In this document: in pieces, positions 70-36,719 of the stretch
Position numbering within the stretch: position 1 is the first letter of the stretch
Layout of the letters: every line of letters starts with the position of its first letter
NCBI GenBank assembly: GCA_963977015.1
Contig: CAXBMO010000006.1
Span: 160,001 to 224,000, forward strand
DNA length: 64,000 nucleotides
Source: an uncultured bacterium
GTDB taxonomy: Bacteria > Verrucomicrobiota > Verrucomicrobiia > Verrucomicrobiales > DEV007
Direction of reading: 5' to 3'
The notes under the pieces: generated by a model
Databases searched by the model: none
What the model was told of the DNA's origin: nothing
The model's input: only the letters and a program-made list of their open reading frames with translations
Made by a program: the position numbers and the translations under genes

Positions 70-1455
<1,386 letters not shown>

Positions 1456-1457
1456 CA

Positions 1458-2018
1458 TTGAGCGATTCCGAGAAATTAACCAGAGCCTGGGGCTATGTGG
1501 CGGAGTTCGAAAGCCCGAAAGCGGTTTTCGATGCTGCTAAAAAGTGTCGTGAAGAGGGATTTAAGCGATGGGATGTCCATTCGCCGTTCCCGATCCACGG
1601 GATGGATGCCGCGATGGGATTGGGGCCCTCCTACCTTTCAAAGTTCGTCTTCTGCGGAGGACTTTTTGGGACGTTGACAGCCCTGGCCCTCCAGTTTGGA
1701 ACGCAGGTTGGCCTTTATCCGACGATTGTTCAGAACAAGCCGGCGAACCTTTGGACGATACCGGCGTTCTTCCCAATCACGTTTGAGCTGACGATTCTGT
1801 TCGCCGCATTCACCATTCTTTTTGGCCTGTTGATCATCATCAAGCTGCCGAGACTTCATCATCCACTGTTTGGATCCAAGTCCTTCACCAAGTTTTCGGA
1901 CGACGGCTTCATTATCGCGATCGAAGCGCGGGATCCCAAATTCTCCAGGGAGAAAACCAAGGAGTTTCTCCTCTCCGTGGGAGCGACCGAAGTTGAACTC
2001 GTGGAGGAAGAACTCTGA
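1458..2018 (+). CDS. actD: Alternative complex III subunit ActD (DUF3341)
   Basis: DVHSPFPIHGMDAAMG and FFPITFELTILFAA motifs, two TM helices, follows actC. TTG start. Confidence 0.92.
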   Translation: MSDSEKLTRAWGYVAEFESPKAVFDAAKKCREEGFKRWDVHSPFPIHGMDAAMGLGPSYLSKFVFCGGLFGTLTALALQFGTQVGLYPTIVQNKPANLWTIPAFFPITFELTILFAAFTILFGLLIIIKLPRLHHPLFGSKSFTKFSDDGFIIAIEARDPKFSREKTKEFLLSVGATEVELVEEEL

Positions 2019-2034
2019 GACTTTTTTAGGAACA

Positions 2035-2733
2035 ATGCGCTGGTTTTTCCTCATTACTTTTCTATTTGCAGTCCTCTGGGTCGGCCTTTGGGGCTGGCAG
2101 GGACAGACGTCGACCAATAATCCGGTCGAGGTGTTCCAGGACATGGATCATCAATACAAACTGCGTCCCCAGAAGCAGAGCGACTTCTTTGCTGACGGAA
2201 TGGTCAGTCGCAAGCCGGTGGAAGGAACCGTTCCCATGGGATACGTGGTTCCGGACAAGGCGATTTCCAAAGGTGGAAAGACCGATCCCCGGCTTGGCTT
2301 GTCCAATGACTACTACAGCACGGGACTGATCGGAGAGTTTTTCGGCTCCGGATTCCCTGAAGGGATTGAGGTCAGTGAGGACTTGCTGGATCGCGGTGAG
2401 CAGCGATTTGATATCTATTGCAGCGTTTGTCACGGGATGAGCGGTTACGGGAAAGGGGTTGTCGCCTCGTTCTGGTTGGGAGGAACACTTCCGCCGACCG
2501 CGAATCTGATTGATCCGAGAGTTGCTGAAATGCCGGAGGGACAGATTTTCCACACCATCACCAACGGGAAAGGCCTGATGGGGCCTTATGGAGGAAATAT
2601 CCCGCCAAATGATCGCTGGGCGATTGTGGCCTATTTACGTGCTCTTCAATTGAGCCAGAAGGCAGATCTGAAAAATCCGAAGGTGAAGGCTGCCTTCGAT
2701 GCCGCAGCCCAGAGCACCGAATCTACTCAATGA
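2035..2733 (+). CDS. actE: Alternative complex III monoheme cytochrome c ActE
   Basis: ATG at 2035, N-terminal hydrophobic anchor, DMDHQYK..PQ..SDFFADG..SRKPVEGTV, CSVCH heme motif, GLMGPY, DRWAIVAYLRALQ. Confidence 0.92.
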   Translation: MRWFFLITFLFAVLWVGLWGWQGQTSTNNPVEVFQDMDHQYKLRPQKQSDFFADGMVSRKPVEGTVPMGYVVPDKAISKGGKTDPRLGLSNDYYSTGLIGEFFGSGFPEGIEVSEDLLDRGEQRFDIYCSVCHGMSGYGKGVVASFWLGGTLPPTANLIDPRVAEMPEGQIFHTITNGKGLMGPYGGNIPPNDRWAIVAYLRALQLSQKADLKNPKVKAAFDAAAQSTESTQ

Positions 2734-4280
2734 GCGCCCACAAATCTGTTAAAGACCTCCCGAAAGGTGGAGAAAAGATCGACGGCAGCAAGGTTGCTGG
2801 AGCCAAGATGTTGTTTGCCCTGCTTGGGGTGATCGGCTTGGGAGGTATCCTGATTGCTTTCTTCATGGACGGTGAAAGTCATGAAGACGTTGCCGACCAG
2901 GCATCCTATTCTTATTTGTTCGCCTTTACCTTTGCTCTCACTTTGGGAATGGGCGGTTTGTTTTGGACCATTCTGCATCACGCGACCAACTCGGGATGGG
3001 GGATTTCAGTCCGTCGCCAAATGGAGAACATCATGGGGCTGCTGCCGTGGGTGTTCGTGCTTTCGATTCCTTTTTGGATTCCCAGCATTCGCGAAGATCT
3101 CTGGGAGTGGGAAGCCAAGGCGGTAAAACTGAAGGCTGAGGCCGGGAAGCTTGTTTCAGGTCACCTTGCGACGGAAAATGCTGAGTGGTCCCATCAGGTA
3201 GAGGATCTCAAGGGAAAAATCGCCGAACGAAAGGCATTGCTCGGAAATCTTGAGACGGGTGGGGGCGTAACGCCCGGAGACCTTGAGGCGATCAAGGAAC
3301 AAAGCATCGATCTCGAAGCAAAACTCGCGGTGCTTGAATCTGAGAAGCCGAATGCGAAGTCGGTTCTCAAACACCTGATGAAAGTCGGTGATGAAGAGCA
3401 TGGTCTTCAGGGAGATACCCTTTTGACGGAGAAATGGTTCTTCTACTTTAAGGACACCAAATTGCGCCTCGTTCTCTACACGGTCATTTTCGTGCTGATC
3501 GTCTATCTTCTAAGAAGTTGGTCGATTCGAAACGATAAGATCGCCGGAGAGGACTTGTTCAAACGCTCTCGTTACTGGAGCTGCTTCTTCCTGATTCCGT
3601 TTGCGGCTGGCTACACCTTCATGGTGATCGATTTCCTCATGTCCCTGAACTACAAGTGGTTCTCGACCATGTGGGGAGTTTACCTGTTTGCCGGCGCCGC
3701 CCTCAATGGGATGGGACTGTTGGTAATTGTTATCACCTGGTTGCGCAGCAAGGGTTATCTGAAGGAAGTCGTCAGTGACGAGCACTATCACCTGATGGGG
3801 AAACTGATGTTTACCTTCTGTGTGTTCTGGGCCTACATCGCATTCAGTCAGTATTTCTTGATTTGGTATGCCAACATTACGGAAGAGACGGAATTCTTCC
3901 TCCTGCGGAACAGCGGCGAGTGGCGAACTGTGAGTATGGCCCTCGTGGTGGGACACTTCTTCATCCCGTTTGTGATTCTTCTATGGCGGGGTGTGAAGAA
4001 GAAGGCCCATTTGATTTGCACGGTAGCGGTTTGGAACCTGGTGATGCACGTTGTTGATGTTTACTGGATCGTGATTCCCGAGCGCGCACCGAGCCTGAGT
4101 GCCTTGGCTCATTCTAAAGAGCCTGTTCTCTGGTATCCAGGAGCTCTCCTCTTTGATCTTTTAGCCTTGGTCGGCGTTGTCGGTGTCTTGGGATACGTTC
4201 TCATCCACATCATTCAGAAATCGAGTCTCTACCCCTGTGGTGACCCTCGGTTGGAAGAGTCAATTAACGTTGTGAACTAG
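2730..4280 (+). CDS. actF: Alternative complex III subunit ActF (ActC paralogue)
   Basis: Polytopic, with WFSTMWGVY, HYHLMGKLMF, FWAYIAFSQYFLIWYANITEE and DVYW motifs. ATGA overlap with actE. Confidence 0.9.
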   Translation: MSAHKSVKDLPKGGEKIDGSKVAGAKMLFALLGVIGLGGILIAFFMDGESHEDVADQASYSYLFAFTFALTLGMGGLFWTILHHATNSGWGISVRRQMENIMGLLPWVFVLSIPFWIPSIREDLWEWEAKAVKLKAEAGKLVSGHLATENAEWSHQVEDLKGKIAERKALLGNLETGGGVTPGDLEAIKEQSIDLEAKLAVLESEKPNAKSVLKHLMKVGDEEHGLQGDTLLTEKWFFYFKDTKLRLVLYTVIFVLIVYLLRSWSIRNDKIAGEDLFKRSRYWSCFFLIPFAAGYTFMVIDFLMSLNYKWFSTMWGVYLFAGAALNGMGLLVIVITWLRSKGYLKEVVSDEHYHLMGKLMFTFCVFWAYIAFSQYFLIWYANITEETEFFLLRNSGEWRTVSMALVVGHFFIPFVILLWRGVKKKAHLICTVAVWNLVMHVVDVYWIVIPERAPSLSALAHSKEPVLWYPGALLFDLLALVGVVGVLGYVLIHIIQKSSLYPCGDPRLEESINVVN

Positions 4281-4287
4281 AATTTCG

Positions 4288-4878
4288 ATGAGTAAGCAAC
4301 TTCATCCCGCAGACAAACCACTTCTCAGACTCGGCGCCTATCTTGGCGGTTTCGTCGCCATTTTCGCTTTCGCTTTGTTGGGGCTCCTCATTGCCAAAGC
4401 TCCCGTTCGAAGCAGCGAACCTTCCTTTTCGGAGGAGACAGCCAATGCTCGGAAAGCGATCGCTGATAAAGTCAAGGCAGCAGATGTCGCTGCCCTTACC
4501 GAGCCGGAGTTGATTGATGAAGCTTCCGGGGTTGTTCGAATTCCGATTGCAGCGGCCAAAGACGTGGTTCTTGAAGAACTCCAGAGCCTGAAGCCGAAGA
4601 AGTCTGCCATTCCCCTTCCGGGTTCGGCTGCCGCAACCAAGCTCATGCAAGAGCAGTCCGCGCCGGCTCCAGCAGCCAAAGCTGAGCCAAAGGAGGAAGC
4701 GCCCAAGAAACCCAAGGCCAAACCACAAGCAGCGGAGAAGAAAACGCCTGCTGCTGCGGAGCCGAAGCAACCAAAGAAGCCTCAGCAAAAGCCGAAGGCG
4801 GACGCTGTGCCGACGGACGAGGCCAAGCCTGCTTCCAAGCCTGAAACTCCCGCGAAACCATCAAACCCGCAGGGTTAG
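4288..4878 (+). CDS. ActG-like single-pass membrane protein with Pro/Ala/Lys-rich tail
   Basis: One TM helix, IDEASGVVRIPIAAAK resembles the ActG GVVRIPI..A motif, lies after actF. Confidence 0.6.
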   Translation: MSKQLHPADKPLLRLGAYLGGFVAIFAFALLGLLIAKAPVRSSEPSFSEETANARKAIADKVKAADVAALTEPELIDEASGVVRIPIAAAKDVVLEELQSLKPKKSAIPLPGSAAATKLMQEQSAPAPAAKAEPKEEAPKKPKAKPQAAEKKTPAAAEPKQPKKPQQKPKADAVPTDEAKPASKPETPAKPSNPQG

Positions 4879-4883
4879 TTTTT

Positions 4884-6356
4884 ATGAGTTCCGATACCAA
4901 CGAAATCGATATTAACCTTCGCGCGCAGATTGATCGCTCACTGCGCTTTCCGTTGCTATTTTTCTTCACGAGCGCCGCTGTATGGTTGGTTTTCGGCACG
5001 GCGTTGGGGTTTGTCAGCTCCTTGAGCTTGAATTTCCCCGGCCTGTTTGAAGGATGCGCGTTCCTGTCCTACGGCCGGGTCTTTCCAGCTCAAATGAATG
5101 CGCTGGTATACGGTTGGGGAATGCAGGCCGGTTTTGGAGTCGCCCTGTGGATTATGGCTCGTTTGAGTCGCTCCACCTTGAAAAACCCGGCGACAGTCAT
5201 CGTCGCCGGCCATGTCTGGAATGCGATGATCCTGTTTGGCTTGTTCTCGATCCTTTTTGGTTGGGGGACTTCAATTATGTGGTTGGATTTTCCGAAGGCC
5301 TTCGCACCTGCCGTGGTCGGAACCTTTATCGTGATCATGATCTGGGCGTTGGGAATGTTTGCGGCACGCCGCGACCGCGAAGCCTACGTATCCCAATGGT
5401 ACATTCTCGCCTCTATTCTCTGGTTTCCTTGGATTTACCTCACCGCCAATTGGTTCATCCACATTGATGAAGGTGCGGCCGTGATCAAGGCTGGGATTGA
5501 TGCCTGGTATGTCAGCAACATGATTTACATGGTGCTCGCCCCAATCGCGTTGGCTTCTGCCTACTATATTGTTCCCAAGGTCATTGGTCGGCCGATCTAT
5601 AGCAACAGTATCGCAGTGTTTGGATTTTGGACGCTGGCGATTTTCGCCGGTTGGACGGGGATGAATCGAATCATGGGCGGGCCTCTTCCGGCTTGGATGC
5701 CCACCTTTGGAAGCGCCGCTGCCATATTCCTGCTCATTCCTGCGTTGGCAGTTGCCTTTAACCTGGTAAAGACGCTCGGTTCACGTTCGGATTGGATCAG
5801 CTACAGTCCTTCGTTGCGATTCACCATTTTCGGAGTCTTCGCCTTTGTCGTGACCGTGGCGCTCGGCGCGATCATGTCCATCTTCCCTGCCGGAAAGATC
5901 TTTCAATTCACTCATGCGCAGGCCGGCTACGACCTGCTCGCGGTATATGGGTTTTACTCAATGACCATTCTTGGTGCGATCTACTTTATCGTTCCCCGGA
6001 TTGTCGGTTGCGAGTGGATCAACGGGGGCTGGATTCGATTCCATTTCTGGTTTTCGGCCTATGGAACCATCGCCATTGTGGCGTTCATGGTGTTCGCCGG
6101 CATGGCCCAGGGTTACATCATCAACAACTGGGGAGAGGATTTCTTAACCTCCGTCGAACGAGGAAAGCCCTACTTGGCTTCGCTCTGTTTGGGATGGGGA
6201 CTCATCGTTATTTCAAACATCGCCTTCCTGTTTCACCTCGGTCTGATGGCGATTAAGCGCGGCCGAACCGATGAGGTCGGGCCGACCTTGATTCATAAAC
6301 AGCCAGAGGATTACTTTGCAGAAACAGAACTAAGCAAGGAAGGAGCAAACGCATGA
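4884..6356 (+). CDS. CcoN-like (cbb3 oxidase subunit I fold) membrane protein lacking the heme/CuB histidine ligands
   Basis: About 12 TM helices with CcoN landmarks (LSYGRVFP, YVSQWY, YYIVPK..GRPIYS, FW..IF..WTG, GAIYF..PR, HFW), but the ligand positions read Q, S, NR and Y-D-L. Confidence 0.8.
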   Translation: MSSDTNEIDINLRAQIDRSLRFPLLFFFTSAAVWLVFGTALGFVSSLSLNFPGLFEGCAFLSYGRVFPAQMNALVYGWGMQAGFGVALWIMARLSRSTLKNPATVIVAGHVWNAMILFGLFSILFGWGTSIMWLDFPKAFAPAVVGTFIVIMIWALGMFAARRDREAYVSQWYILASILWFPWIYLTANWFIHIDEGAAVIKAGIDAWYVSNMIYMVLAPIALASAYYIVPKVIGRPIYSNSIAVFGFWTLAIFAGWTGMNRIMGGPLPAWMPTFGSAAAIFLLIPALAVAFNLVKTLGSRSDWISYSPSLRFTIFGVFAFVVTVALGAIMSIFPAGKIFQFTHAQAGYDLLAVYGFYSMTILGAIYFIVPRIVGCEWINGGWIRFHFWFSAYGTIAIVAFMVFAGMAQGYIINNWGEDFLTSVERGKPYLASLCLGWGLIVISNIAFLFHLGLMAIKRGRTDEVGPTLIHKQPEDYFAETELSKEGANA

Positions 6357-7000
6357 ACAGTTTTCGCGGTTTCATTTTATGTTTAGGGGCAACTTTCGCC
6401 CTCCCTTGGATCTTCCTGATCGTGGTTCCTTTCAAGGCGACCTCCAATCTGGATGTCGTAGAGTTTGAGGTCGAAGGCGAGAAGGTGACCTATCCACCAG
6501 CGCGTGTCGGAGCCGTTCGCGGCGCGGAAGTTTATGCCAGGAATGGTTGCGCCTACTGCCATACACAGATGGTTCGGCCAACGTATGCCGGGACTGATAT
6601 GTGGAGACCCGGTTGGGCTGGAAGAGGGGGCGAGGAATCAACCCTGCGTTCCACCATCCCACAAGATTACCTTGGAGAGAAGTATGCTTATCTGGGAGCC
6701 TTGCGCCACGGACCTGATTTGAGCAACGTCGGTTGGCGGATCACCGACCGGAAATGGCACTACGAGCATTTGTATGATCCTCGCTCGATCAAACCGACAA
6801 CCATCATGCCGAGCTACCGCAACCTTTTCGAGAAACGCCGGGTGATTGGGCAGCTCTCCGCAGATGCGATCGAGACGTTTGAGAAGAATGGCGAAACCTG
6901 GGAAGTGGTTCCCAGCAATGACGCAAAGTCTCTGGTCGATTACTTGATGTCGCTGAAGAAGGACTTTCTCGTACCCGACAGTCTTGCAGCAACGAAATAA
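6353..7000 (+). CDS. ccoO: CcoO-like monoheme cytochrome c (cbb3 subunit II family)
   Basis: N-terminal TM, G..VY..NGCAYCHTQMVRP, G..RHGPDLSNVG, WHYEHLYDPR, IMPSY, LVDYLMSL. Confidence 0.85.
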   Translation: MNSFRGFILCLGATFALPWIFLIVVPFKATSNLDVVEFEVEGEKVTYPPARVGAVRGAEVYARNGCAYCHTQMVRPTYAGTDMWRPGWAGRGGEESTLRSTIPQDYLGEKYAYLGALRHGPDLSNVGWRITDRKWHYEHLYDPRSIKPTTIMPSYRNLFEKRRVIGQLSADAIETFEKNGETWEVVPSNDAKSLVDYLMSLKKDFLVPDSLAATK

Positions 7001-7774
7001 ATGGCGATGGACGAAGATCACAATCAGAACTTGGATTACGGCGAACGCTCAAGCGTTGCGGATTTGAACTCAGCGGTGAAGCGTGAAAAATCGGAGCCTA
7101 CCGCAGGGTTGGAGCCCGTTTCGATCTGGGCTTTCATCATTGCGGGATTGGTGATGGTCGCTGGCGGTGCCTACCTCGGCGCGTATTCAGCGGGTGGCTT
7201 GAGCATGAAGAACACTTACGCGGTTGCCAACTACGTTCCAGCGGAACGCCCGGTGCTTGAAGGATCTGTTGTGGTCGAGGATACGCGACCTTGGATTGAC
7301 AAGTGGATGGCTGGTGGGAAATCCGTCTATGCCACCTGTCAGGCTTGTCACCAGACCAACGGAAACGGGATGCCTGGCCAATTTCCTCCTCTTGGCGATT
7401 CAGAGTGGGTGGTGAACGGCACTGAACGACTTGGCGCAATCCTGTTTCCCGGGATTCAAGGGCCGATGAGCGTCAAAGGATCGACTTACAATGGGTTGAT
7501 GCCAGCCCAAGGCGCAATGTTAAGCGACAAGCAGATCGCACAGGTCATGACCTATATCCGCCGCAGTTTCGGAAATGATGCGTCTGTTGTGACGGAAGAA
7601 ATGGTGAAGAATGCGCGGGCCAAGTATGGTTCCCGAACCGCACCATGGTCCGAAGCAGAACTTCTGGAAATTCCTCAAGACGCGATGCTTCCGGGCGCTG
7701 AAGTTGATTTGCAGACAGGGGAGCCGTTGGGAGGCGGGGAATCTGGAGGTGACGAACCTGCATCGGACGTATAG
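7001..7774 (+). CDS. Membrane-anchored class I monoheme cytochrome c
   Basis: One TM helix, CQACHQ..G.GMPGQFPPL..SEWV, YNGLMPA Met ligand, IAQVMTYIR..FGN. Confidence 0.9.
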   Translation: MAMDEDHNQNLDYGERSSVADLNSAVKREKSEPTAGLEPVSIWAFIIAGLVMVAGGAYLGAYSAGGLSMKNTYAVANYVPAERPVLEGSVVVEDTRPWIDKWMAGGKSVYATCQACHQTNGNGMPGQFPPLGDSEWVVNGTERLGAILFPGIQGPMSVKGSTYNGLMPAQGAMLSDKQIAQVMTYIRRSFGNDASVVTEEMVKNARAKYGSRTAPWSEAELLEIPQDAMLPGAEVDLQTGEPLGGGESGGDEPASDV

Positions 7775-7838
7775 GATGCGTCCCGCTTGCCTCGAGATAC
7801 GAAACAAGTAAGCCTAGAAGAACAACCACCATTTTTTC

Positions 7839-9758
7839 ATGAGTTCGACGACCGAATCTGCTGCTGGCCACGGCCACGACGATCACGACCACCACGATCC
7901 TTCGTTCTGGCAGAAGTACATTTTTTCGACCGATCACAAGGTAATCGGAATCCAGTACGGAATCACCTCGCTGGTCTTCATGGCGTTTGGATTTTTCCTC
8001 ATGATGGTGATGCGATGGAGCATCGCGTATCCTGACCAACCACTTCCCCTGGTCGGGAACTGGCCGTTTTTCCGGAATTGGATTGGCGAAGACGGATTGG
8101 TGACTGGTGAGCTTTACAACATGTTTGGGGCCATGCATGGCACGATCATGGTGTTCCTGGCCGTGGTGCCTCTCGCGTTCGGGGCTTTCGGGAACTACGT
8201 GACTCCTCTGCAAATTGGAGCCCCGGATATGGCGTTTCCCCGCTTAAATATGGTGAGTTATTGGTCTTACCTGTTTGGCGGAATCTTGATGCTGACAAGC
8301 TTCTTCCTGACCTCTGGTGCCGCCAAGGTGGGTTGGACAAACTACTCACCGCTCGCCACCACGACAGACCTTCATTTCCGCGATAAGTTCTGGACCGGGC
8401 AAACCCAGTGGCTCGTTGCGATGGTCTTCTTGATCAGCTCGTCACTGTTGGGCGCGGTCAATTTCATCACCACCATCATCAACCTCCGTGCGCCGGGAAT
8501 GACCTGGTTTCGGATGCCCTTCTTCTGCTGGGCACAGTTGGTGACCGCCTTTCTCCTGCTGCTCGCGTTCCCGCCACTGGAAGTGGCCGCAGTGATGCAG
8601 CTGATGGACCGTCTTGCCGGAACCAGTTTCTTCGTCCCGACCGGATTGGTCGTTGGAGGATCGCTCTTTGATTCTGCCGGCGGCGGTAGTCCGTTGCTCT
8701 ATCAGCACCTGTTCTGGTTTTTGGGACACCCGGAGGTTTACGTTTTGATCCTACCAGCGATCGGAATTGTTTCGGAAGTTGTCGTCAACAATACCCGAAA
8801 GCCTCTCTGGGGGTATCGGACCATGGTCGGAGCCGTGATGGTGCTCGGATTTCTGAGCTTTATCGTATGGGCCCACCACATGTATCTCACGGGAATGGGG
8901 ACCGCGATATCGACGTTCTTCCAAACCACGACGGTGCTCATTTCTGTTCCGTCGGTGATACTGATCACCTCCCTCCTCATTTCGATGTGGGGTGGTTCGA
9001 TCCGCTTCACGATGCCCATGCTCTGGGCGACCGCTTTCATTCCCATGTTCGGAATTGGAGGTCTTACCGGGTTGCCTCTGGCGTTTAACCTCATCGATCT
9101 TCACCTTCACGATACCTACTACGTCATCGGGCACTTCCATTACGTCGTCGCGCCGGGAACCATTTTCGGGCTGTTTGCCGGCATCTACTATTGGTTTCCA
9201 AAACAGACGGGGAGACAGATGAACAAACTCCTCGGCCACCTCCATTTTTGGCCATCGCTCATCTGTATGAACCTGATTTTCGCGCCGATGTTTATTCAGG
9301 GCATGTCAGGAATGCACCGCCGAGCGTTTGATGGCGGGGCTGCCTACGAGCAGATCGCAAGTCAGGTTTACTTGGGAGCGGATCATCCGTTGGCAAGAAT
9401 GTTCAATGCCTTCTTCAAGAACGGTGCCCACCTACCCGTCGAGGTGATTGACCTGAACCTGGTGACCTCTTTTGGGGCGTTCGTCCTCGCCTTGGCTCAG
9501 ATCCCATTTGTGGTGAATTTCTTCTGGAGCATGTTCAAAGGAGGGAAGAGCACCGAGCGCAATCCCTGGCAGGCAACTACCTTGGAGTGGGCCTGCCCAA
9601 CGCCTCCTCCTCACGGGAATTTTGACAAGGACCCGGTGGCTTATCGCGATCCTTACGAATACAGTGTGCCTGGAGCTGAGTCAGACTACACTCCACAGTT
9701 TGAGCCTGATCCAGCCGAGGTTACCGAACCTGAAAAGAAGGATGCTGCGGCTTCCTAG
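7839..9758 (+). CDS. ctaD: A-family heme-copper oxidase subunit I
   Basis: STDHKVIG, MHGTIMVF, GAPDMAFPRLN, YQHLFWFLGHPEVY, WAHHM, LHDTYYVIGHFHYV, GMHRR, NPW..TTLEW. All six His ligands are present. Confidence 0.97.
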   Translation: MSSTTESAAGHGHDDHDHHDPSFWQKYIFSTDHKVIGIQYGITSLVFMAFGFFLMMVMRWSIAYPDQPLPLVGNWPFFRNWIGEDGLVTGELYNMFGAMHGTIMVFLAVVPLAFGAFGNYVTPLQIGAPDMAFPRLNMVSYWSYLFGGILMLTSFFLTSGAAKVGWTNYSPLATTTDLHFRDKFWTGQTQWLVAMVFLISSSLLGAVNFITTIINLRAPGMTWFRMPFFCWAQLVTAFLLLLAFPPLEVAAVMQLMDRLAGTSFFVPTGLVVGGSLFDSAGGGSPLLYQHLFWFLGHPEVYVLILPAIGIVSEVVVNNTRKPLWGYRTMVGAVMVLGFLSFIVWAHHMYLTGMGTAISTFFQTTTVLISVPSVILITSLLISMWGGSIRFTMPMLWATAFIPMFGIGGLTGLPLAFNLIDLHLHDTYYVIGHFHYVVAPGTIFGLFAGIYYWFPKQTGRQMNKLLGHLHFWPSLICMNLIFAPMFIQGMSGMHRRAFDGGAAYEQIASQVYLGADHPLARMFNAFFKNGAHLPVEVIDLNLVTSFGAFVLALAQIPFVVNFFWSMFKGGKSTERNPWQATTLEWACPTPPPHGNFDKDPVAYRDPYEYSVPGAESDYTPQFEPDPAEVTEPEKKDAAAS

Positions 9759-9794
9759 CTCGCAGAACGCAGTCTAGTGACAAGATAGAATAAG

Positions 9795-11294
9795 ATGGAA
9801 ATTCCATACACCGTCAATCCCCGTCGCGATACGGGCCTCTTCAATGCAAAAGTTGGCATCTGGCTGTTTTTGGCATCAGAGGTGATGCTCTTTGGGGGAT
9901 TGTTCTCCGCCTACATATTCCTGCGCACCGGCGTTCGTGAAGGCGTTGATATTCCTTGGCCGAACGGACTCGACGTCCATGGCTGGATGTACTGGATCGG
10001 GTTCATCAACACCCTGATTTTGATTGCCTCGAGTGTGTTCGTCGTCATGGCGTGGGCGCAACTCAAGCTTCGGAATTACGGCAAGTATCAGCTCTACATG
10101 GCTGGCGTGTTGATCTGTTCCGCTCTCTTCATGGTCAACAAGGGCTATGAATACAACTCCAAGCTGAATCATCACTTCGGCATCTATCTCACGGATGGGA
10201 CGCTTCTGGATGGTGCCCTCGTTAAGGATGAAAAGCATGGCATCAAGGGCGACGAAATTGTTTTCCAGGCCGATGAGGTGGATTTTGCCTTGGTTGGGAC
10301 TGGTGTGTTTGGAAAGGCCGATCCCTACTTCCTCGATTTCGCAGAGAACAAGGATCTGACCTATGACATCCAACTCTTCAAAGCGGAGTCGGCGGATGGA
10401 AAACTGGAGTTCGTGGAAGGCGAAATGAAGTCAGGTTTGTCGGCCGACCTTATCCCCGGCGTGCTTGATGTTCATATTGCGGAGTTGGAGAAAGCGGCTG
10501 CGGCAGATGCCGTCGAGCGGAAGAAGGCTTTGAAGCAGAAGATTCGCGAAGCTGAGGGAGCTGCAAAGATTGCCCTTCAGAGGGAATTGGCTCTGCTCCG
10601 TCCCATCAAGATTCCAGGCAAGGTCGTTGGAAAGCCTTCCGAGCCTGCCAACTACGTATTTAAGCGGAAGGAAATTTTGGGCGGTAAGCCAGGCAAGGAA
10701 TCGATCGCATTTTTCCGCGGCAATGGGCTGCGGGGAACCTTGGTTGATGACACCGTGGATATCGAGGTTCACACCATCGATCTTCAAATGGTGGCGGTGG
10801 ATACCGAATCGATGGCCTGGGGCAATGACATTTGGTCTCATGGCGAAGGCGAGGCGATGAAAGAAGGCTACCTCCATCACAAGGCGGAAGCGGAAGAGCA
10901 CTACCGGGAATTCATTCAGCAAGGGTATTTCCCGGCTGACAAGATTTACCGCTGGCATCACGCACATGCGGCTCACTCCAAAGCCGAGACCGGAGGAGAG
11001 GACAGCCACAGCGAGTATTCAGTCGTTTCTGTTCCCGGTGATCAGGTGAGAAGGATGGGGAACCATGGACCCAAGTTTGGCCCTTACTATGCAATTTACT
11101 TCACGATGACGGCCTTACACGGACTTCACGTGGTTGGTGGAGCGATTGTGCTTGGCTATTTCCTCTTCTTTGGTCGGAAGCTCTACAAGAAGAATCCTGA
11201 ACACCTTGCCAACCGCGTCGAGGTTGGAGGTTTGTTCTGGCACTTTGTGGATCTGGTTTGGATCTTCCTCTTCCCGCTCTATTATCTCCTTTAA
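9795..11294 (+). CDS. ctaE: Heme-copper oxidase subunit III with large soluble insertion
   Basis: GIWLFLASEVMLFGGLFSAY, NTLILIASS, YFTMTALHGLHV, GLFWHFVDLVWIFLFPLYYL. About 300 extra residues in the middle. Confidence 0.92.
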   Translation: MEIPYTVNPRRDTGLFNAKVGIWLFLASEVMLFGGLFSAYIFLRTGVREGVDIPWPNGLDVHGWMYWIGFINTLILIASSVFVVMAWAQLKLRNYGKYQLYMAGVLICSALFMVNKGYEYNSKLNHHFGIYLTDGTLLDGALVKDEKHGIKGDEIVFQADEVDFALVGTGVFGKADPYFLDFAENKDLTYDIQLFKAESADGKLEFVEGEMKSGLSADLIPGVLDVHIAELEKAAAADAVERKKALKQKIREAEGAAKIALQRELALLRPIKIPGKVVGKPSEPANYVFKRKEILGGKPGKESIAFFRGNGLRGTLVDDTVDIEVHTIDLQMVAVDTESMAWGNDIWSHGEGEAMKEGYLHHKAEAEEHYREFIQQGYFPADKIYRWHHAHAAHSKAETGGEDSHSEYSVVSVPGDQVRRMGNHGPKFGPYYAIYFTMTALHGLHVVGGAIVLGYFLFFGRKLYKKNPEHLANRVEVGGLFWHFVDLVWIFLFPLYYLL

Positions 11295-11297
11295 GTC

Positions 11298-11720
11298 ATG
11301 GCAAGTTCACCCGAAGAAATTCGTAAACACATCAACACCTACTGGAAGGTTGGTGCCGCGCTCTGCGTGTTCACCTGCATCACCCTTGCGCTGGGGATTT
11401 GGCATCCGTTTGATTTTGGTTTTCCCGGTGTCGACACCATCGATATTGTTGTGGGTTTGTTGGTCGCCACCATCAAAACCAGCTTGGTGATGCTGATCTT
11501 CATGCACTTGAACCACGAGCGGGGTTTGATCTACAAGACCCTCCTGTTCACCGTTGCGTTCGCCATTAGTTTGATGGGCCTCTCGTTGTTTGCGAAGGCT
11601 GACCCGATCAAAGCGCATTCCGATGTTACGGTAAAAGTGGACCGCGAAGGCGAGAAGGAACGTATTATTGGTAGTGCGAACCAACCTCACTCCGATTCGA
11701 CGAAGGAGAGTTCCCACTAA
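11298..11720 (+). CDS. ctaF: Prokaryotic cytochrome c oxidase subunit IV
   Basis: Three TM helices, VATIKTSLVMLIFMHL motif, directly after subunit III. Confidence 0.88.
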   Translation: MASSPEEIRKHINTYWKVGAALCVFTCITLALGIWHPFDFGFPGVDTIDIVVGLLVATIKTSLVMLIFMHLNHERGLIYKTLLFTVAFAISLMGLSLFAKADPIKAHSDVTVKVDREGEKERIIGSANQPHSDSTKESSH

Positions 11721-11747
11721 GGAAACACCCATCCGAAACTTCCAACC

Positions 11748-11951
11748 ATGAGTCTGAAGCAATTCCATGTCTTTTTCATCACACTAGCAGTGCTCTGCAC
11801 GTTTAGTTTTGGTGTTTGGGCACTCTTTGCTCCATCAGACATCGTGGGAACATGGGGAAGAGTGGGTGGTTTCTTAAGCGCCGCCATCGGAGTTGCCCTG
11901 GTTCCTTATGGCATCTGGTTCGTCCGGAAATCGAAGAACATCATCACGTAA
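11748..11951 (+). CDS. Small two-TM hypothetical protein in oxidase operon
   Basis: 67 aa, MSLKQFHVFFI start, two hydrophobic helices, co-oriented within the operon. Confidence 0.7.
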   Translation: MSLKQFHVFFITLAVLCTFSFGVWALFAPSDIVGTWGRVGGFLSAAIGVALVPYGIWFVRKSKNIIT

Positions 11952-11983
11952 TCGCACGCGGCCACCCCTGACCTATACTTCCC

Positions 11984-12184
11984 ATGGACCTTCTTAATTT
12001 AGATACCATTCTAGCCTGTCCCGCTTGCCGGTTTAATGACTCCAGTGTAACCCAGGCCGCCAATCTTGCGATCGGGGTCATGGTGATGGTGGTTTTTGGA
12101 GTTCTCAGTGCCTTCATAGCCTTTATTGTCAAACTAGCAAAGGGCGAGCGCGCTGTAGCCGCCGTGGAAACACGCCAGCATTAA
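11984..12184 (+). CDS. Small membrane protein with CPAC motif
   Basis: 66 aa, LACPAC near the N-terminus followed by one TM helix, directly before subunit II. Confidence 0.7.
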   Translation: MDLLNLDTILACPACRFNDSSVTQAANLAIGVMVMVVFGVLSAFIAFIVKLAKGERAVAAVETRQH

Positions 12185-12225
12185 TTGTGTGAGACTGGCT
12201 GGGAAGCCTCAATTGATTTAGTAAA

Positions 12226-13020
12226 ATGGATCCTATTCTTGGTTTTAGTATTAACGAACTTCTTGGACAGCCTGAGTTGGCTTCAAAGCATGGTGGTCAG
12301 ATCGATCACATGCTGGAAGTCGTTCACTGGTTCATGGCCATTCTCGGAATTGGATGGACCATTTTCTTTTTCACCGTTCTCTTCAAATTCAACAAGAGGG
12401 CGAATCCGGCGGCAAGTTACAAGGGAGTAACCTCGCATTTTACGACCCACCTTGAGGTGCTGGTTGTGATTGTCGAAGTCGTTCTGCTCTTGGGTTTCGC
12501 GTTTCCACTCTGGGCCAAGCGCGTTGAGGACATTCCGAGCGAGGACGATCCCAATGTGGTGCGAGTCCGTGCTGTCGGAGAGCAATTCCGATGGAATTTT
12601 CATTATGCAGGAGCTGACGGTCGTTTTGGTTTGGTCAAGCCGGAGAACATCAACGGGACCAATCCTGTTGGTTTGGTCAACGCCGATCCGAATGCCTTTG
12701 ACGACTTCCTCGCGAACGAGCTGATCTTGCCAAAGGATCGGATGTGTATTGTTCAGGTATCCTCCAAAGACGTCATTCATAACCTGGCGCTGATCCCCAT
12801 GCGGATTCAGCAGGACGCGATTCCAGGAATGGAGATTCCGATGTATTTCACCCCAACCAAGACCGGTCGTTGGGACATTGTTTGTGCCCAGCTCTGTGGT
12901 GCAGGCCATGCCAAAATGGTCGCCTTTCTGGACGTTCAGGAACAAGAGGAGTTTGATTCATGGTTTACCCAGAAAACCGAATCTGCTGCTGCCAAGGCAA
13001 CCGCTGCGGCTGCCCAGTAG
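12226..13020 (+). CDS. ctaC: Cytochrome c oxidase subunit II (CuA), no fused cytochrome c
   Basis: Two TM helices, QFRWNFHY, SKDVIH, DAIPG, CAQLCGAGHAKM CuA motif. No CxxCH. Confidence 0.95.
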   Translation: MDPILGFSINELLGQPELASKHGGQIDHMLEVVHWFMAILGIGWTIFFFTVLFKFNKRANPAASYKGVTSHFTTHLEVLVVIVEVVLLLGFAFPLWAKRVEDIPSEDDPNVVRVRAVGEQFRWNFHYAGADGRFGLVKPENINGTNPVGLVNADPNAFDDFLANELILPKDRMCIVQVSSKDVIHNLALIPMRIQQDAIPGMEIPMYFTPTKTGRWDIVCAQLCGAGHAKMVAFLDVQEQEEFDSWFTQKTESAAAKATAAAAQ

Positions 13021-13113
13021 TCTTTTCGTTGGGGATGAGACGGCCCGGGAACTCCTGGGGCTGACACTCATGATCCAAACCCGCGCGAGGCATGATGCTC
13101 GGGCTGTTGAACT

Positions 13114-14112
13114 ATGTCTCTCGTCCTCAGAACTGCTCAAGTAGCGCTCGTTTCGGTCATCGTGCTCGTCTTTGTCGGCGCGATTGTGAGGTCATCCGGC
13201 GCTGGATTGGGATGCCCTGATTGGCCGACTTGCTGGGGACGCATCATTCCTCCCACCAAAGCGGAGCAGATCGATCCGGAGAAGCTGGACATTCCCAGAT
13301 TCAAGCGATACGCGGAGCGCCACGGCATCGACCCCGACACGGTTGAGCGAGAATCGGTTCTGGGTAGCTTCAATGCGGTTCACACTTGGACGGAGTTCAT
13401 CAATCGTCTCACATCGTTGCCCTTGGGGGTATCGACCCTGCTCCTGGCCATCTTCTCGTTTCGGGCAAGCCGTCATCGCAAGTGGGTAGTCGCCTTGGCT
13501 TGGTTTGCCCTCCTCGATGTTCTCTTCAATGCGTGGATGGGGGCCGAAGTCGTCCGCAGTGGATTGAAGCCGGGCATCATCACCCTTCACATGGCGCTCG
13601 CATTGCTGCTGATCTGTGTGCTGGTCACCATCACATGGTTGTCCCGCACCCCAAAGGTGTTGGACATTGGTGAAACCCGCCATCTCCGATGGGTGTCGCT
13701 TCTCTTTTTCGTCTGTCTCTTCGCGGAAGGCATCTTCGGGAGCCAGGTGCGCGAAATGACCGACCAACTGGCCAAAGCGGCTGGAGATATGCCGCGAAGT
13801 GAGTGGATTGGCGCGCTTGCCTCCACCTCCATTTACCAGATTCACCGGAGCTTTTCGTGGTCACTGCTCGTTTCCGCCGGAGCCGTGTTCTGGCTTGCCC
13901 GGCGCAGCAGGAGCGGCGCTGAGGCTTGGGAGCCCAAAGTGATCCTTGGAATCGTTCTCGCCATGATGTGCATGGGAATCATTCTCGCCCACGTTGCGAT
14001 TTATCCCGTCGTTCAGGTCCTCCACGTTGGACTCACCGCAATTTTGCTTGCCGTAACCTGGAAATGGGTGCTGGAAGTCTTATCCGCCCCACGCCATGAG
14101 CACTCCATCTGA
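13114..14112 (+). CDS. ctaA: Heme A synthase (COX15/CtaA)
   Basis: GAGLGCPDWPTCWG, WTEFINRL, LHM, IHRSFS, LHV motifs. Confidence 0.9.
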   Translation: MSLVLRTAQVALVSVIVLVFVGAIVRSSGAGLGCPDWPTCWGRIIPPTKAEQIDPEKLDIPRFKRYAERHGIDPDTVERESVLGSFNAVHTWTEFINRLTSLPLGVSTLLLAIFSFRASRHRKWVVALAWFALLDVLFNAWMGAEVVRSGLKPGIITLHMALALLLICVLVTITWLSRTPKVLDIGETRHLRWVSLLFFVCLFAEGIFGSQVREMTDQLAKAAGDMPRSEWIGALASTSIYQIHRSFSWSLLVSAGAVFWLARRSRSGAEAWEPKVILGIVLAMMCMGIILAHVAIYPVVQVLHVGLTAILLAVTWKWVLEVLSAPRHEHSI

Positions 14113-14974
14113 TATTCCTTCTCGCGCCGATCTCGTCGAGCTCACCAAAGCTCGGTTGAGCATCATGGTGGTCGTGACAACGGGGGCCGGCTTCATCTCC
14201 GGTTGGCCTGACGAGACGCCATTCCATTTCGCGCTTCTGTTTCACACCGTTTTTGGAACGATTTTGTCCGCCTTTGGCGCCGCCGTCTTCAATCAGCTGA
14301 TGGAGATTCAGGCCGACAAGAAGATGAAACGCACGGCAGACCGGCCGTTGCCTGCGGGGCGCATTCCGCCGGCTGGTGCGTTTGTGATTGGTTGGGTGTT
14401 GTCCGCCTTTGGCGTGGTTCACCTCGGTGTCAAAGTCAATACCTGGGCCGCGGTCATCGCCGGCCTTACGTTGGTGGTTTACATCTTCATCTACACGCCC
14501 CTCAAGCGCCGTTCGAGTTGGAACACGATTGTCGGCGCGGTCGCGGGTGCGCTTCCTCCGGTGATCGGCTGGGTTGGAGCGGGCCGGGGCTTGGATGCTG
14601 GAGCACTCTGGTGGTTTGCCCTGCTGTTCTTTTGGCAGCTTCCCCACTTCTTCGCCATCAACTGGATTTACCGGGAAGAGTATCAGAAAGGGGGCTTCAT
14701 CATGTTGGCCAATCAGGATGACGATGGGAGCAAGACATCGCGTTGGGCGCTCATCTTTGCCGTCTCGTTGGTGCTGCTGGCGTTCGTTGCACCCGTGGCT
14801 GAAATCACGCGGTGGTGGTTTGTCTTTCCCGGAGCCCTTGCGGCGGGATGGCTCGTGATGCTGTCGCTCAAGTTCGTCAAAACGCCCGAACGTTCGACCG
14901 GACGCCGTCTCTTTTTCGGGACCTTGATCTATCTGCCGATCGTGCTTGTTGCAGCGCTGCTCGCGAAGCCGTAG
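14096..14974 (+). CDS. ctaB: Protoheme IX farnesyltransferase (heme O synthase)
   Basis: ELTKARL, DKKMKRTADRPLPAGRI, YTPLKR, GALPPVIGW, FWQLPHF, YREEY. Confidence 0.95.
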   Translation: MSTPSDIPSRADLVELTKARLSIMVVVTTGAGFISGWPDETPFHFALLFHTVFGTILSAFGAAVFNQLMEIQADKKMKRTADRPLPAGRIPPAGAFVIGWVLSAFGVVHLGVKVNTWAAVIAGLTLVVYIFIYTPLKRRSSWNTIVGAVAGALPPVIGWVGAGRGLDAGALWWFALLFFWQLPHFFAINWIYREEYQKGGFIMLANQDDDGSKTSRWALIFAVSLVLLAFVAPVAEITRWWFVFPGALAAGWLVMLSLKFVKTPERSTGRRLFFGTLIYLPIVLVAALLAKP

Positions 14975-31589: not shown

Positions 31590-34500
31590 ATGAACACTTG
31601 CCGCAATTTTACCACCTTACTTACCTGTTTTGCGCTTCTTCAATCGCCACTCGCCGTGGCAAATCCTGCCAATGGCATCATCAAGTTCGGCGATGGCGAA
31701 ATTAACTTCGACACTGAGAACGCAGTCTTCATCCACCAGGATTCCGACAAACTCATCATCGACTGGGAATCTTTCTCCATCGATCCCGGCGAACTGACGA
31801 AATTCCTTCAGCCCAATTCCTCCTCTGCGGCTCTGAACCGCGTTTTCTCGGGCGATCCCAGCGCGATCCACGGACAATTGCAGGCCAATGGCCGCGTTCT
31901 GCTCCTTAACCCGAACGGAATCCTCGTCGGCCCCAACGGCCAAATCGACACCGCCGGCTTTGTCGCGTCCACCCTCAACCTCAGCGATTCCGACTTCCTC
32001 GACGGTGGCGACATGACCTTTTTCGGCAATTCAACCGCAGCCGTTACCAACCTCGGCACGATCAACGCCATCGATGGCGGCGACATTTTCCTCATCGCCC
32101 GTGAAGTCCGCAACGCCGGAACCCTCAACGCGCCCGAAGGCACTGTCGGGATGGCCGCCGGCTCCGAAGTCGTCATCGCAGCCGAGGGCGAGGAGCGCAT
32201 TCTCATCACGCCCGATGGGCAGAACGCGTCCGTCACCAACGAAGGCGTGGTCCGCGCCGCGACTGCCGAACTCAAAGCCGCGGGCGGCAATCCCTACGCC
32301 CTCGCCATCAACAACACCGGCCTGGTTCGCGCCACCAAGTTCCAAAATCGCGGCGGTAAGCTCTACCTCTCGGCTTCCGGCGGCCGCATCGTCAATTCCG
32401 GATCGTTGCGGGCCAGCTCCAGCGTCTCGATTCGCCAAACCGGCCAGTCGGGCGATGTCGAAATCGGCGGTTCGGCCACCGCCCAGGATGAAATCACCGG
32501 GAACGGCGGAGAGGTCGAGATTTCCGGCCCCAACGTCGCGCTGTTGCCCGGTTCCAGCGTTAACGCATCGGGCAATGAGGCCGGGCAAGTCGCGATTCGG
32601 GCCACCGTCATCGGCGGCAAGACGCAAATCGGTGGCTCGGTGGCCGCATCAGCCTCGGCCGGCGATGGCGGACTGGTCAGCGTCACTGGTGAAACGATCG
32701 AAGTCAGCCCGACCGGGCGGATCGAGGCAAACGGCGCGCAAAACGGCGGTCTCCTCATGCTCGGCGTCAATCCAGCCGCTCCCTCCACCGAAATTCCGAC
32801 GAATTCCGCTGCGCTCGCTGCGAGTTCGCTCCTTTCCGCCAACGGCGGCGCAGGAAACGGGGGCGATGTCCTCCTTTTCGGAACCGGCGATGGCGAAATG
32901 TCGCTCGGCGGCATGATTCGAGTCAATGGCGGGGGCGGAAACGGGGGCCAAATTGTCGCGATCGGCGGGGACATCACGGTTCAGCCGACCGCTTTGCTTC
33001 AGGCCAACGGAGAAATTGACGGCGGCTTCATCCAACTGGAAGGCGAAGGCGATGTCATCGTTGGCGGCCGCGTCGATGCGGCTGGAGCGGAGGGAAGCGG
33101 CGGCAGAATCGCGCTCGTCGGTGAAAACGTCACCCTCACCCAGACCGGCGTGATCGATGCGGGCGGTGAGACGGATGGCGGCTTCGTCTCGATACAAGGC
33201 GGCGAGGACGGAATTGTCTCCGTAGCCGGTCAAATTCGCGCGATCGGCCAAACTGGGGATGGCGGGATGATCCAAATCAACGGCGGCGACGTCGTTGTCG
33301 CGCAAACCGGCCTTCTCGATGTCTCGGGCGGCGCGAACGGCGGCTTCATCCAGGTCGAAGCGCAAAACAACGCCACCTTCAACGGCACGGCGCGTGCAAT
33401 CGGCGGCTCCGGCGATGGTGGCGTGGTGGAAGTTCTGGGCGAAAACGTGACGCTCGGCTCGACCGCGTTGATCGATGCCTCGGGCGGCGTCAACGGCGGC
33501 CAGGTGTTCGTCGGCGGCGGGCGCAAAGGCCGGGACCCGAATCGACGCAACGCGCAAAACACCACCGTGGCGAACGGCGCGCGGATCGTCGCGAACGGCG
33601 GTGAGGCGGGTGGTGAAGTGGTCCTCTGGGCCGATGGCGCGATGGATTTTCGGGGGAGTGTTGTAGCGGAAGATACCAAATCTTCCGGCAGTGGCTCTGA
33701 AACGTCGGAATTTTTCGCAAATTCCGCTACGGGCGAAGGCAGCGGCGGTTTCGTGGAAGTCTCCGGCCTCGAATACCTCAATTTCGCCGGCCACGTCGAT
33801 ACCGGGGGCGGCCAGCTGCTGCTGGATCCGTTCAACTACACCATCGGCGCGGCGGAAGCCGGAGCCATCGTCGCGGCGCTGGCCAACAACAACGTCACCA
33901 TCGACACGACGCAAGACGTCGGCGCGCAGGGCTCCAGCGGCAACGCGGCCGACACCGGGATCATCACCGTCAACTCCAACCTATTCTACGATTCGCCCAA
34001 CGACCTGACCTTCCTCGCGATGGCCGATCTCATCTTCAACGCCAGCGTCCAGAACCGCAACGACACGGATGGCGACATCAACCTCGTCGCCGGCTGGGAT
34101 GGGACTACGGCTTACAACACGGCCACCTTCGCAGCGGAAGATGTGACCAACACCACCGTCTTCGGCAACAACATGGGTTCCGTCTTCATCGGCACCGGCA
34201 ATCAGACTCAAGGCATCGCCGTCGGCAGCCGTAGCGGAGCGACGAATGCGTTCGGTTACGACGTGAATGTGCTGGGCGCGACCAACAGCGATGGCGATTC
34301 CGGAACGACCGGGGACAATACCCGCTTCGGTCACCTGGGCTTCCGAATCACCAATGGAACCAGCCTGGATGGGACCAATCTGGGCTCCAATGCCATCGTG
34401 GACGGCGACATCACCATCCACGCCATGAATAGCCTGTCCGCCATCGCGGGCAATGACGTCGATAATTATGCGAAGGTGGGTCACGTCGGTCCCGACCGGA

Positions 34501-36569: not shown

Positions 36570-36719
36570 AGACACCCCAAGCGCTGATTTCCGGGTTGCT
36601 TCATCCTCCCGCATCGTTAACAATCCGCCAACACTCACAAACATCCCAATCCGCCCTGGTGGATTGACCTTTTTAGAAACCTTCCAAGGTACGTTCACGC
36701 GCACCCTCAACCTAGCCTT

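Follow-up and report, generated by a model that had tools for sequence, protein, structure and literature searches.

Oxidase genes and the K-channel lysine position

The stretch of DNA analysed here (the window; 64,000 nucleotides, positions 160,001 to 224,000 of contig CAXBMO010000006.1 in assembly GCA_963977015.1) belongs to an uncultured bacterium of the Verrucomicrobiales (lineage DEV007) and carries a single respiratory gene cluster on the + strand at window positions 70-14974. The cluster encodes an A1-type heme-copper oxidase in which subunit I (CoxI) has a leucine at the position of the K-channel lysine, while subunit II (CoxII) has a second membrane-embedded glutamate that is a candidate replacement for this lysine. 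The features of the two subunits that bear on this are listed below in window coordinates; the term clade refers to the group of related enzymes to which the window enzyme belongs.

7839-9758, + strand: coxI, A1-type heme-copper oxidase subunit I, 639 aa (Pfam COX1, E = 7.6e-132; PDB chain 1ar1_A, E = 6e-125)
8727-8741, + strand: H297-P-E299-V-Y301, comprising a CuB ligand, the D-channel Glu and the cross-link Tyr, which is the end point of the K-channel
8772-8777, + strand: Ser312 (Paracoccus S291, the K-channel serine) and Glu313
8930-8995, + strand: core of helix VIII, the part flagged by the initial annotation (helix 355-383 in the AlphaFold2 model)
8952-8954, + strand: Ser372 (Paracoccus T351), retained upper K-channel hydroxyl
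8961-8963, + strand: Leu375, codon CTG, at the position of the K-channel lysine (Paracoccus K354) in an ungapped alignment
8967-8969, + strand: Thr377, two residues after the lysine position, clade-specific polar residue
9042-9053, + strand: Pro402 and Gly405, two clade-specific positions of helix IX that hold a small or kinking residue at the level of the mid-channel
12226-13020, + strand: coxII, CuA subunit II, 264 aa, without a cytochrome c domain (Pfam COX2)
12454-12456, + strand: Glu77 of subunit II, canonical K-channel entry Glu (Paracoccus E78)
12475-12477, + strand: Glu84 of subunit II, second membrane-embedded Glu and candidate replacement for the lysine
12889-12891, + strand: Gln222 of subunit II (motif C-A-Q-L-C), replacing the CuA/Mg-bridging Glu

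A phmmer search against PDB chains, with 1ar1_A as subunit I of the Paracoccus denitrificans aa3 oxidase, showed that CoxI residues 315-418 align with residues 294-397 of this chain with no gaps (E = 6e-125). The correspondence between the two enzymes is Leu375 to Lys354, Ser372 to Thr351, Ser312 to Ser291, Tyr301 to Tyr280, Glu299 to Glu278 and Asp130 to Asp124. According to passages of PMC3084760, the K-channel residues of the Paracoccus enzyme are K354, T351, S291 and Y280 and the D-channel residues are D124, N113, N131, S134, S193, N199 and E278. The region of CoxI around the substitution, residues 360-390, contains VLISVPSVILITSLL. The initial annotation had reported that the K-channel lysine is absent and that codon 8961-8963 encodes leucine instead, which the ungapped alignment to Paracoccus K354 bears out.

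Relatives of the locus were collected by a genome scan with CoxI, in which 600 stretches matched, 577 were confirmed and the best 80 were kept. A total of 82 CoxI open reading frames (ORFs) were extracted, including that of the window itself and a second copy in one of the loci (L036). Of these, 54 form the clade group at 55% identity or more and 26 carry the lysine, the latter mostly at 39-43% identity (Pseudomonadota and Bacteroidota loci and the weaker copy of L036). The remaining two are a Binataceae locus (L065) with Ile at the lysine position and a locus that ends before this column (L025).

All 54 clade CoxI from the 80 genome loci and the window have Ile or Leu at position 375, and Leu was found at this column in 119 of the 119 best 90%-identity clusters. 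A sequencing or assembly error, or a decaying gene, is ruled out by these two counts, and the CoxI frame is also intact at 639 aa with every metal ligand present, so that this explanation has practically no chance of being correct. The relatives would have been expected to show Lys in the case of an error, and they carry Leu or Ile throughout. The Leu375 substitution is thus real and is a trait of the clade.

Conserved core and enzyme class

The catalytic core of the oxidase was conserved. H297, E299 and Y301 of the GHPEVY motif (residues 296-301) were invariant in 40 of 40 clade sequences, as were the His ligands of heme a, heme a3 and CuB (H100, H297, H346, H347, H432 and H434). D130 and N137 are present in GAPDMAFPRLN, and the D-channel residues D130, N119, N137, S140, S202, N208 and E299 were all invariant or at least 90% conserved in the clade alignment. 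The H424-D425 and R494-R495 pairs are present as well and were invariant or nearly so among the 40 relatives. In subunit II, the CuA ligands H185, C220, C224, H228 and M231 were invariant in the clade alignment. The D-channel Asp and Asn, the GHPEVY motif, the His ligands and the HD and RR pairs are therefore as intact as had been claimed from the window alone, and they are kept in the 40 clade relatives. The Glu of the THLEV motif in subunit II, noted earlier as the usual K-channel entry, is present as Glu77 and aligns with the canonical entry Glu. With the D-channel, the active site and the entry Glu intact, the view of the enzyme as a natural variant of an A1-type oxidase that is under selection was upheld.

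The Mg site was an exception in part. H424 and D425 are intact as had been described, but the site is not fully canonical because the CuA/Mg-bridging Glu of subunit II is replaced by Gln222. The CuA motif (window 12883-12897, C220-C224) reads C-x-Q-L-C in 44 of 44 clade sequences versus C-x-E-L-C in 24 of 26 Lys-bearing ones.

Family models placed both subunits closest to the aa3 type, with scores under the NCBIfam equivalog cut-offs. CoxI scored 568.9 bits with TIGR02891 (CtaD; cut-off 670.75) and CoxII scored 118.5 bits with TIGR02866 (CoxB; cut-off 147.7), each being the best-scoring family for its subunit. At the positions by which an A-family K-channel is recognised, Lys354 is replaced by Leu375 and Thr351 by Ser372, and the Ser291 position is unconstrained in the clade. 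Overall, the enzyme is an aa3-type A1 oxidase by its fold, ligands, D-channel and CuA, the A1 type following from the GHPEVY motif, but it falls outside the A-type definition in the K-channel part.

Two other classes were considered and rejected. A C-family (cbb3) subunit I, which would have a CcoN-type sequence, a Tyr on helix VII and no CuA partner, was ruled out since P0001 matches the CtaD, QoxB and CyoB models and not TIGR00780, and also by the GHPEVY motif and the CuA subunit II. For the B-family, the diagnostic positions hold Leu, Ser and Ser, the last being Ala in most clade members, a D-channel is present, and ba3 chains match CoxI only at E ~1e-5. In the NCBI records, clade proteins including P0177, P0182, P0193 and P0201 are named 'cbb3-type cytochrome c oxidase subunit I'. 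This naming, together with the sub-cut-off scores, is likely to lead to mistyped oxidases in metagenome studies, and inferences of O2 affinity from metagenome annotation can be wrong for the same reason.

Changes that accompany the loss of the lysine

Residues of subunit I were compared between the 54 clade CoxI and the 26 Lys-bearing CoxI. At position 312, the K-channel serine of helix VI, the clade has A in 33, G in 7, S in 6, T in 3, C in 3, I in 1 and V in 1 sequence versus Ser in 26 of 26 Lys-bearing sequences; a Ser or Thr is thus found in 9 of the 54 and the window itself keeps Ser312. The adjacent position 313 is Glu in 53 and Asp in 1 of the 54. Glu313 was rejected as a clade-specific compensation for the lysine, as Glu also occurs there in 10 of the 26 Lys-bearing sequences.

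In helix VIII, the clade-specific residues are S369, V373, L375 and T377. Ser369 is new, and position 373 changes from Gly or Ala in the Lys-bearing enzymes to Val in the clade. Position 372 is Ser in 53 of 54 clade sequences (Lys-bearing: Thr 19, Ser 7), and position 377 is Thr in 49 and Ser in 5 of the 54 versus Phe in all 26. In helix IX, which according to a passage in PMC6115622 lines the K-channel, position 402 changes from mostly Phe to Pro and position 405 from mostly Thr to Gly. A search of the clade-specific and invariant residues in both subunits gave no additional Lys or Arg within a membrane helix. Among ionisable residues, only Glu84 of subunit II and Glu248 of subunit I are new in the membrane. 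The latter is a buried residue of helix V (8580-8582) which, like the neighbouring Gln254 (8598-8600), is clade-specific and is not part of the K-channel. A 12-residue insert in CoxI (residues 266-277, 8634-8669) lies in the P-side loop before helix VI, also outside the K-channel, and is modelled as a small hairpin by AlphaFold2.

In subunit II, 44 of the 45 clade sequences have Glu77, whose counterpart in the Lys-bearing enzymes is the Glu of L-E-x-x-W-T-x-x-P. Glu84 was found in 45 of 45 clade sequences versus none of 24 Lys-bearing ones, all of which have the Pro of that motif at this position (19 read from the alignment and five Bacteroidota rows by eye, where MAFFT had introduced a three-column shift). 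The substitutions are conserved throughout the clade and occur together exclusively in it.

Glu84 lies seven residues, or two helical turns (~10 Å), above Glu77 on the second transmembrane helix (TM2) of subunit II. In single-chain AlphaFold2 models, TM2 spans residues 72-101 (predicted local distance difference test score, pLDDT, 91.3) and helix VIII of subunit I spans residues 355-383 (pLDDT 72.7 overall). Since Leu375 is 8 residues from the N-side end of helix VIII, its depth is compatible with that of Glu84. Subunit II helix II is described in passages of three sources as one of the helices surrounding the K-channel (PMC6115622), as lying near the K-channel next to subunit I helix VIII (PMC9961948), and as forming the interface at which the K-channel entrance is found (bioRxiv 10.1101/2022.04.13.488242). 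From its position and conservation we infer that Glu84 may face the channel and carry protons.

Phylogeny and distribution of the lysine loss

A FastTree phylogeny was built from 187 rows, each with at least 400 core columns filled. The window fell in a clade of 59 rows with a support of 100 and zero Lys inside it; one of these rows (P0149) is visibly garbled. A subset of 96 rows, chosen to comprise 30 clade, 32 other non-Lys and 34 Lys sequences and excluding P0149, was analysed by a quick IQ-TREE run under LG+C20. The 30 clade rows formed one side of a branch with a Shimodaira-Hasegawa-like approximate likelihood ratio test (SH-aLRT) value of 100. Clade members were found in Verrucomicrobiota, Acidobacteriota, Planctomycetota, Marinimicrobia, Ignavibacteria-type and Omnitrophota metagenome-assembled genomes (MAGs), by the taxonomy given in the genome records, in which a few labels are implausible and probably due to mis-binning. 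Overall, the clade is a large, old and monophyletic A1 subfamily.

The initial annotation had taken the lysine to be nearly invariant in A-family oxidases, which did not hold. Among the 150 best 50%-identity representatives, 86 had Lys, 53 had another residue and 11 did not cover the column, so that 53 of the 139 scorable representatives lack the lysine. The residues in the 53 were I in 18, L in 11, Q in 9, V in 4, A, E and M in 2 each, and T, F, H, G and D in 1 each; two of these rows are visibly garbled. The trees require at least eight changes between Lys and non-Lys states with FastTree and at least six with IQ-TREE, and K-less enzymes have already been published.

A separate family A branch of 11 rows, including one with His and one with Ala, has Gln at the lysine position (FastTree support 99). 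Its Gln-type representatives are P0059, P0060, P0097, P0111, P0117, P0122, P0132, P0141 and P0147. At this position, I, L, M, A, F or V is found in further small branches, several in number. The K-less lineages among the representatives also include a Binataceae-type and a P0105/P0109-type clade. One MAG contig (L036) encodes both a Lys-bearing A-type operon (coxII-coxI, with canonical E...P subunit II) and a K-less clade operon, at 3382-5040 and 9968-11749, which shows that the two types can coexist in one genome.

Proposed proton route and its alternatives

The two ends of the K-pathway are under selection in the clade, where Glu77 of subunit II (44/45), Ser372 (53/54) and Tyr301 (40/40) are conserved; the bypassed serine at position 312 is not. 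Our tentative interpretation, which is drawn from alignments, is that the K-pathway has been rewired and works through Glu84 of subunit II. On the branch leading to the subfamily, the middle of the pathway would have been rebuilt, with replacement of the helix VIII Lys by Ile or Leu, release of the helix VI serine from constraint, the changes of Gly to Val373, Phe to Thr377, Phe to Pro402 and Thr to Gly405, and replacement of a conserved Pro in TM2 of subunit II by the invariant Glu84, two turns above Glu77. Protons of the reductive phase would then pass from Glu77 to Glu84 of subunit II and, through water and Ser372, to the farnesyl hydroxyl of heme a3 and Tyr301. The subunit II carboxylate would assume the relay and charge-compensation role of the lysine, and the D-channel would take the pumped protons along with the other chemical protons. 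Space for Glu84 and its solvation may be provided by Thr377 and the smaller residues of helix IX. With slightly more reserve, the route may be regarded as an 'E-E pathway' (Glu77 to Glu84 to Ser372 to Tyr301), in which the relay would have moved between subunits and changed its sign and in which a Lys would not be required as a cation.

Several observations weigh against the rewiring. The co-occurrence of the substitutions represents a single evolutionary event on one branch and not repeated covariation. The Binataceae-type enzyme of L065 is K-less with Ile and has a canonical E...P subunit II with no such Glu, and enzymes of acidophilic Fe oxidisers are described in part of a preprint as lacking both the Lys and the entry Glu (bioRxiv 10.1101/2020.03.01.968255). 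As these enzymes have no added Glu, some A-type oxidases may be able to do without a K-pathway. The role of a buried Glu opposite Thr377 could also be structural only. Finally, the direction of the TM2 conservation moment is 1-8 degrees from Glu84, but 238-616 of 5000 shuffles match it, and the measure is weak and partly circular as the two Glu drive it.

The main alternative is that the K-pathway was lost and all protons enter via the D-channel, with Glu84 of subunit II, Thr377 and the helix IX changes being packing adjustments. The Ile or Leu at the lysine position and the unconstrained K-channel serine would agree with this, as would the D-channel residues D130, N119, N137, S140, S202, N208 and E299 being invariant or nearly so. 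K-less family A enzymes without evident compensation do exist, namely that of L065, those of the Fe oxidisers and those of archaea, for which a passage in PMC8239418 infers seven independent K-channel losses in family A oxidases, and the tree requires at least six changes between Lys and non-Lys states. However, retention of Glu77 (44/45) and Ser372 (53/54) and a buried charged residue of TM2 in 45 of 45 sequences are hard to explain if the pathway is dead. The Fe-oxidiser enzymes, for which uptake by the D-channel alone has been proposed, have by the account in that preprint also lost their entry Glu, whereas the clade keeps Glu77. In addition, mutation of the Lys in canonical enzymes blocks the reductive phase according to passages of PMC6115622 and bioRxiv 10.1101/2022.04.13.488242. 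Uptake through the D-channel only is therefore the weaker reading and we consider it unlikely, since Glu77, Ser372 and Glu84 are invariant or nearly so in the clade. From the window alone, a D-channel-only enzyme and a rerouted proton path had been put forward side by side; the rerouted path, here the rewired K-pathway through Glu84, is plausible, and the D-channel-only enzyme is possible.

Gene cluster and accessory open reading frames

The other genes of the respiratory cluster are as follows.

70-1455, + strand: actC
1458-2018, + strand: actD
ending at 2733, + strand: actE-like cytochrome c
2730-4280, + strand: actF-like
4288-4878, + strand: ORF without a family
4884-6356, + strand: CcoN-like (ligand-less), a context gene uncoupled from the loss of the lysine
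6353-7000, + strand: CcoO-like, a context gene uncoupled from the loss of the lysine
7001-7774, + strand: membrane-anchored cytochrome c
9795-11294, + strand: coxIII, 499 aa, with a large internal insert (Pfam COX3 at the two ends only)
11298-11720, + strand: coxIV (Pfam COX4_pro; TIGR02229, 41.1 bits, above the cut-off of 37.25)
11748-11951, + strand: sA, small two-helix membrane ORF between coxIV and coxII, with N-terminal M-S-L-[KR]-x-F-H
11984-12184, + strand: sB, small ORF with one membrane helix and a C-x-x-C-F-G motif
13114-14112, + strand: ctaA (heme A synthesis)
14096-14974, + strand: ctaB (heme A synthesis)

The nearest genome matches were Verrucomicrobiales MAGs (77% identity) and Rubritalea marina DSM 17716 (67%), a cultured organism in which the same operon is found (locus L009). 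No second oxidase was found in the rest of the 64-kb window, in which the remaining genes are typical of the Planctomycetes-Verrucomicrobia group (DUF1552, DUF1592, PSCyt and DUF1501). A two-partner secretion (TPS) pair unrelated to the oxidase was identified at 31590-38489, where a 1659-aa TPS-domain protein is followed by a ShlB/FhaC-type transporter. In CoxIII, a hydrophilic insert of ~300 residues separates the two ends that match COX3. The long CoxIII is common to Verrucomicrobiales-type loci, and other clade loci have CoxIII ORFs of ~200-400 aa.

The gene order of the clade is coxI-coxIII-coxIV-sA-sB-coxII, with the exception of two Planctomycetota loci (L047 and L048) in which coxII comes first. 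The small ORFs sA and sB were each present in 39 of the 40 clade loci examined, and the M-S-L-[KR]-x-F-H start of sA was kept across phyla. Neither ORF matched a Pfam or NCBIfam family, and a homologue search with sA returned four proteins, none of which has a name. Both are possible extra subunits or a Cu-handling factor. It is conceivable that sA, through [KR]-x-x-H at the N-side entrance of the channel, or another accessory subunit provides in trans the positive or relay group that subunit I lacks. The position of the two ORFs between coxIV and coxII in 39 of 40 loci, the conserved start of sA and the absence of both from described families would be in line with this. On the other hand, the sA motif comprises residues 4-7 and lies at the membrane surface and not as deep as position 375, and L047 and L048 put coxII before coxI. 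We regard supply in trans as improbable.

The CcoN-like protein (4884-6356) aligns with CcoN of P. stutzeri (3mk7_A, E = 4e-30). The six His columns of 3mk7_A are all substituted in it (by Q; S; N and R; Y and L), in agreement with its earlier description as ligand-less, and because all six ligands are missing its role must be non-catalytic. Its CcoO-like partner is a monoheme protein that keeps C-A-Y-C-H. The initial annotation had further suggested that the loss of the lysine is linked to this extra subunit, and a ligand-less CcoN-like and CcoO-like pair might for instance give a proton path through the pseudo-CcoN. In the window and 12 further loci, the two genes do lie directly between the alternative complex III (ACIII) genes and the oxidase genes. 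This link was not supported by the distribution of the pair. In 39 clade loci, the DNA upstream of coxI extends for 5 kb or more; 13 of these encode the CcoN-like protein and 16 have ACIII genes. The 26 loci that lack the CcoN-like gene do not differ in the Ile or Leu, in Glu84 or in Gln222. On the tree, the loci with the CcoN-like gene group in a single sub-branch of the clade, which places the loss of the lysine before the gain of the CcoN-like gene. A functional connection between the two is very improbable. The sub-branch is restricted to Verrucomicrobiota of the Verrucomicrobiales and Chthoniobacterales type, and the CcoN-like protein is possibly a scaffold or supercomplex adaptor.

Comparison with known oxidases

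The closest known systems are the canonical aa3 oxidases of P. denitrificans (1AR1) and Rhodobacter sphaeroides (1M56), which matched at E = 6e-125 and 2e-120, respectively. They share with the clade enzyme the heme and CuB ligands, GHPEVY, the full D-channel, CuA, the entry Glu and the accompanying ctaA and ctaB. The clade enzyme differs from them in subunit I by Leu for Lys354, Ser for Thr351, the unconstrained Ser291 position, the 12-residue insert and Glu248, and in subunit II by Glu for Pro at the entry Glu +7 and Gln for the CuA/Mg-bridging Glu. It also differs in its gene order (I-III-IV-sA-sB-II) and in its sub-cut-off model scores. In five Bacteroidota loci (L056, L057, L059, L071 and L078) the oxidase genes follow an actC-D-E-F cluster. 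Both the Lys and the Ser are retained in these ACIII-linked aa3 oxidases, which we take to be of the Flavobacterium johnsoniae supercomplex type; their subunit II has the canonical E...P, and on the tree they lie on a branch separate from the clade.

Family A enzymes without the lysine have been described in other lineages. The cytochrome c oxidase (COX) of acidophilic Fe(II) oxidisers is reported, in the relevant part of the preprint, to have Ile at K354 and to have lost COX2 E78; it was typed A2 and called a 'rare case', and its authors conclude that the K-channel is probably absent (bioRxiv 10.1101/2020.03.01.968255). It resembles the clade enzyme in belonging to family A, in its hydrophobic residue at K354 (Leu375 here) and in its retained D-channel. 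As described there, it is an A2 enzyme without the entry Glu, whereas the clade enzyme is A1 with Glu77 in 44 of 45 sequences and an added invariant Glu. The COX of Ferrigenium straubiae is presented in part of another preprint as a family A enzyme without a conserved K-channel (bioRxiv 10.64898/2026.01.22.701106). This enzyme and the archaeal K-less enzymes belong to other lineages, and the passages that deal with them mention no compensating residue in subunit II.

A proton path that is free of Lys is also known from the B-family, in which the Lys, Thr and Ser positions are occupied by Thr, Ser and Tyr according to a passage in PMC3084760. The ba3 oxidase of Thermus resembles the clade enzyme in having a path from a subunit II Glu to the cross-link Tyr. 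However, B-family enzymes have Thr at the Lys position and no D-channel, whereas the clade has Ile or Leu there, a new polar group in subunit II and a D-channel.

Significance

The loss of the lysine in itself is not unprecedented; the clade-wide pattern across two subunits is new here. No description of the K loss of this clade or of the second Glu in subunit II was found in full-text literature searches, although an earlier description is possible.

The K-channel is named after its lysine, which acts as a mobile charged gate in mechanistic models; when this lysine is mutated, the reductive half of the cycle is, to our knowledge, blocked in all model enzymes. A large natural clade, found in soil Acidobacteriota and Verrucomicrobiota and in marine Marinimicrobia and Planctomycetota, dispenses with it and keeps both ends of the pathway. 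The clade is thus a natural experiment on whether the role needs a lysine, any protonatable group or nothing. The pattern of substitutions points to a concrete and testable substitute for the lysine in aerobes of an abundant group, and if the rewiring through Glu84 is true, the mechanism of a two-channel (D+K) proton pump that is standard in other respects would not depend on Lys as a cation.

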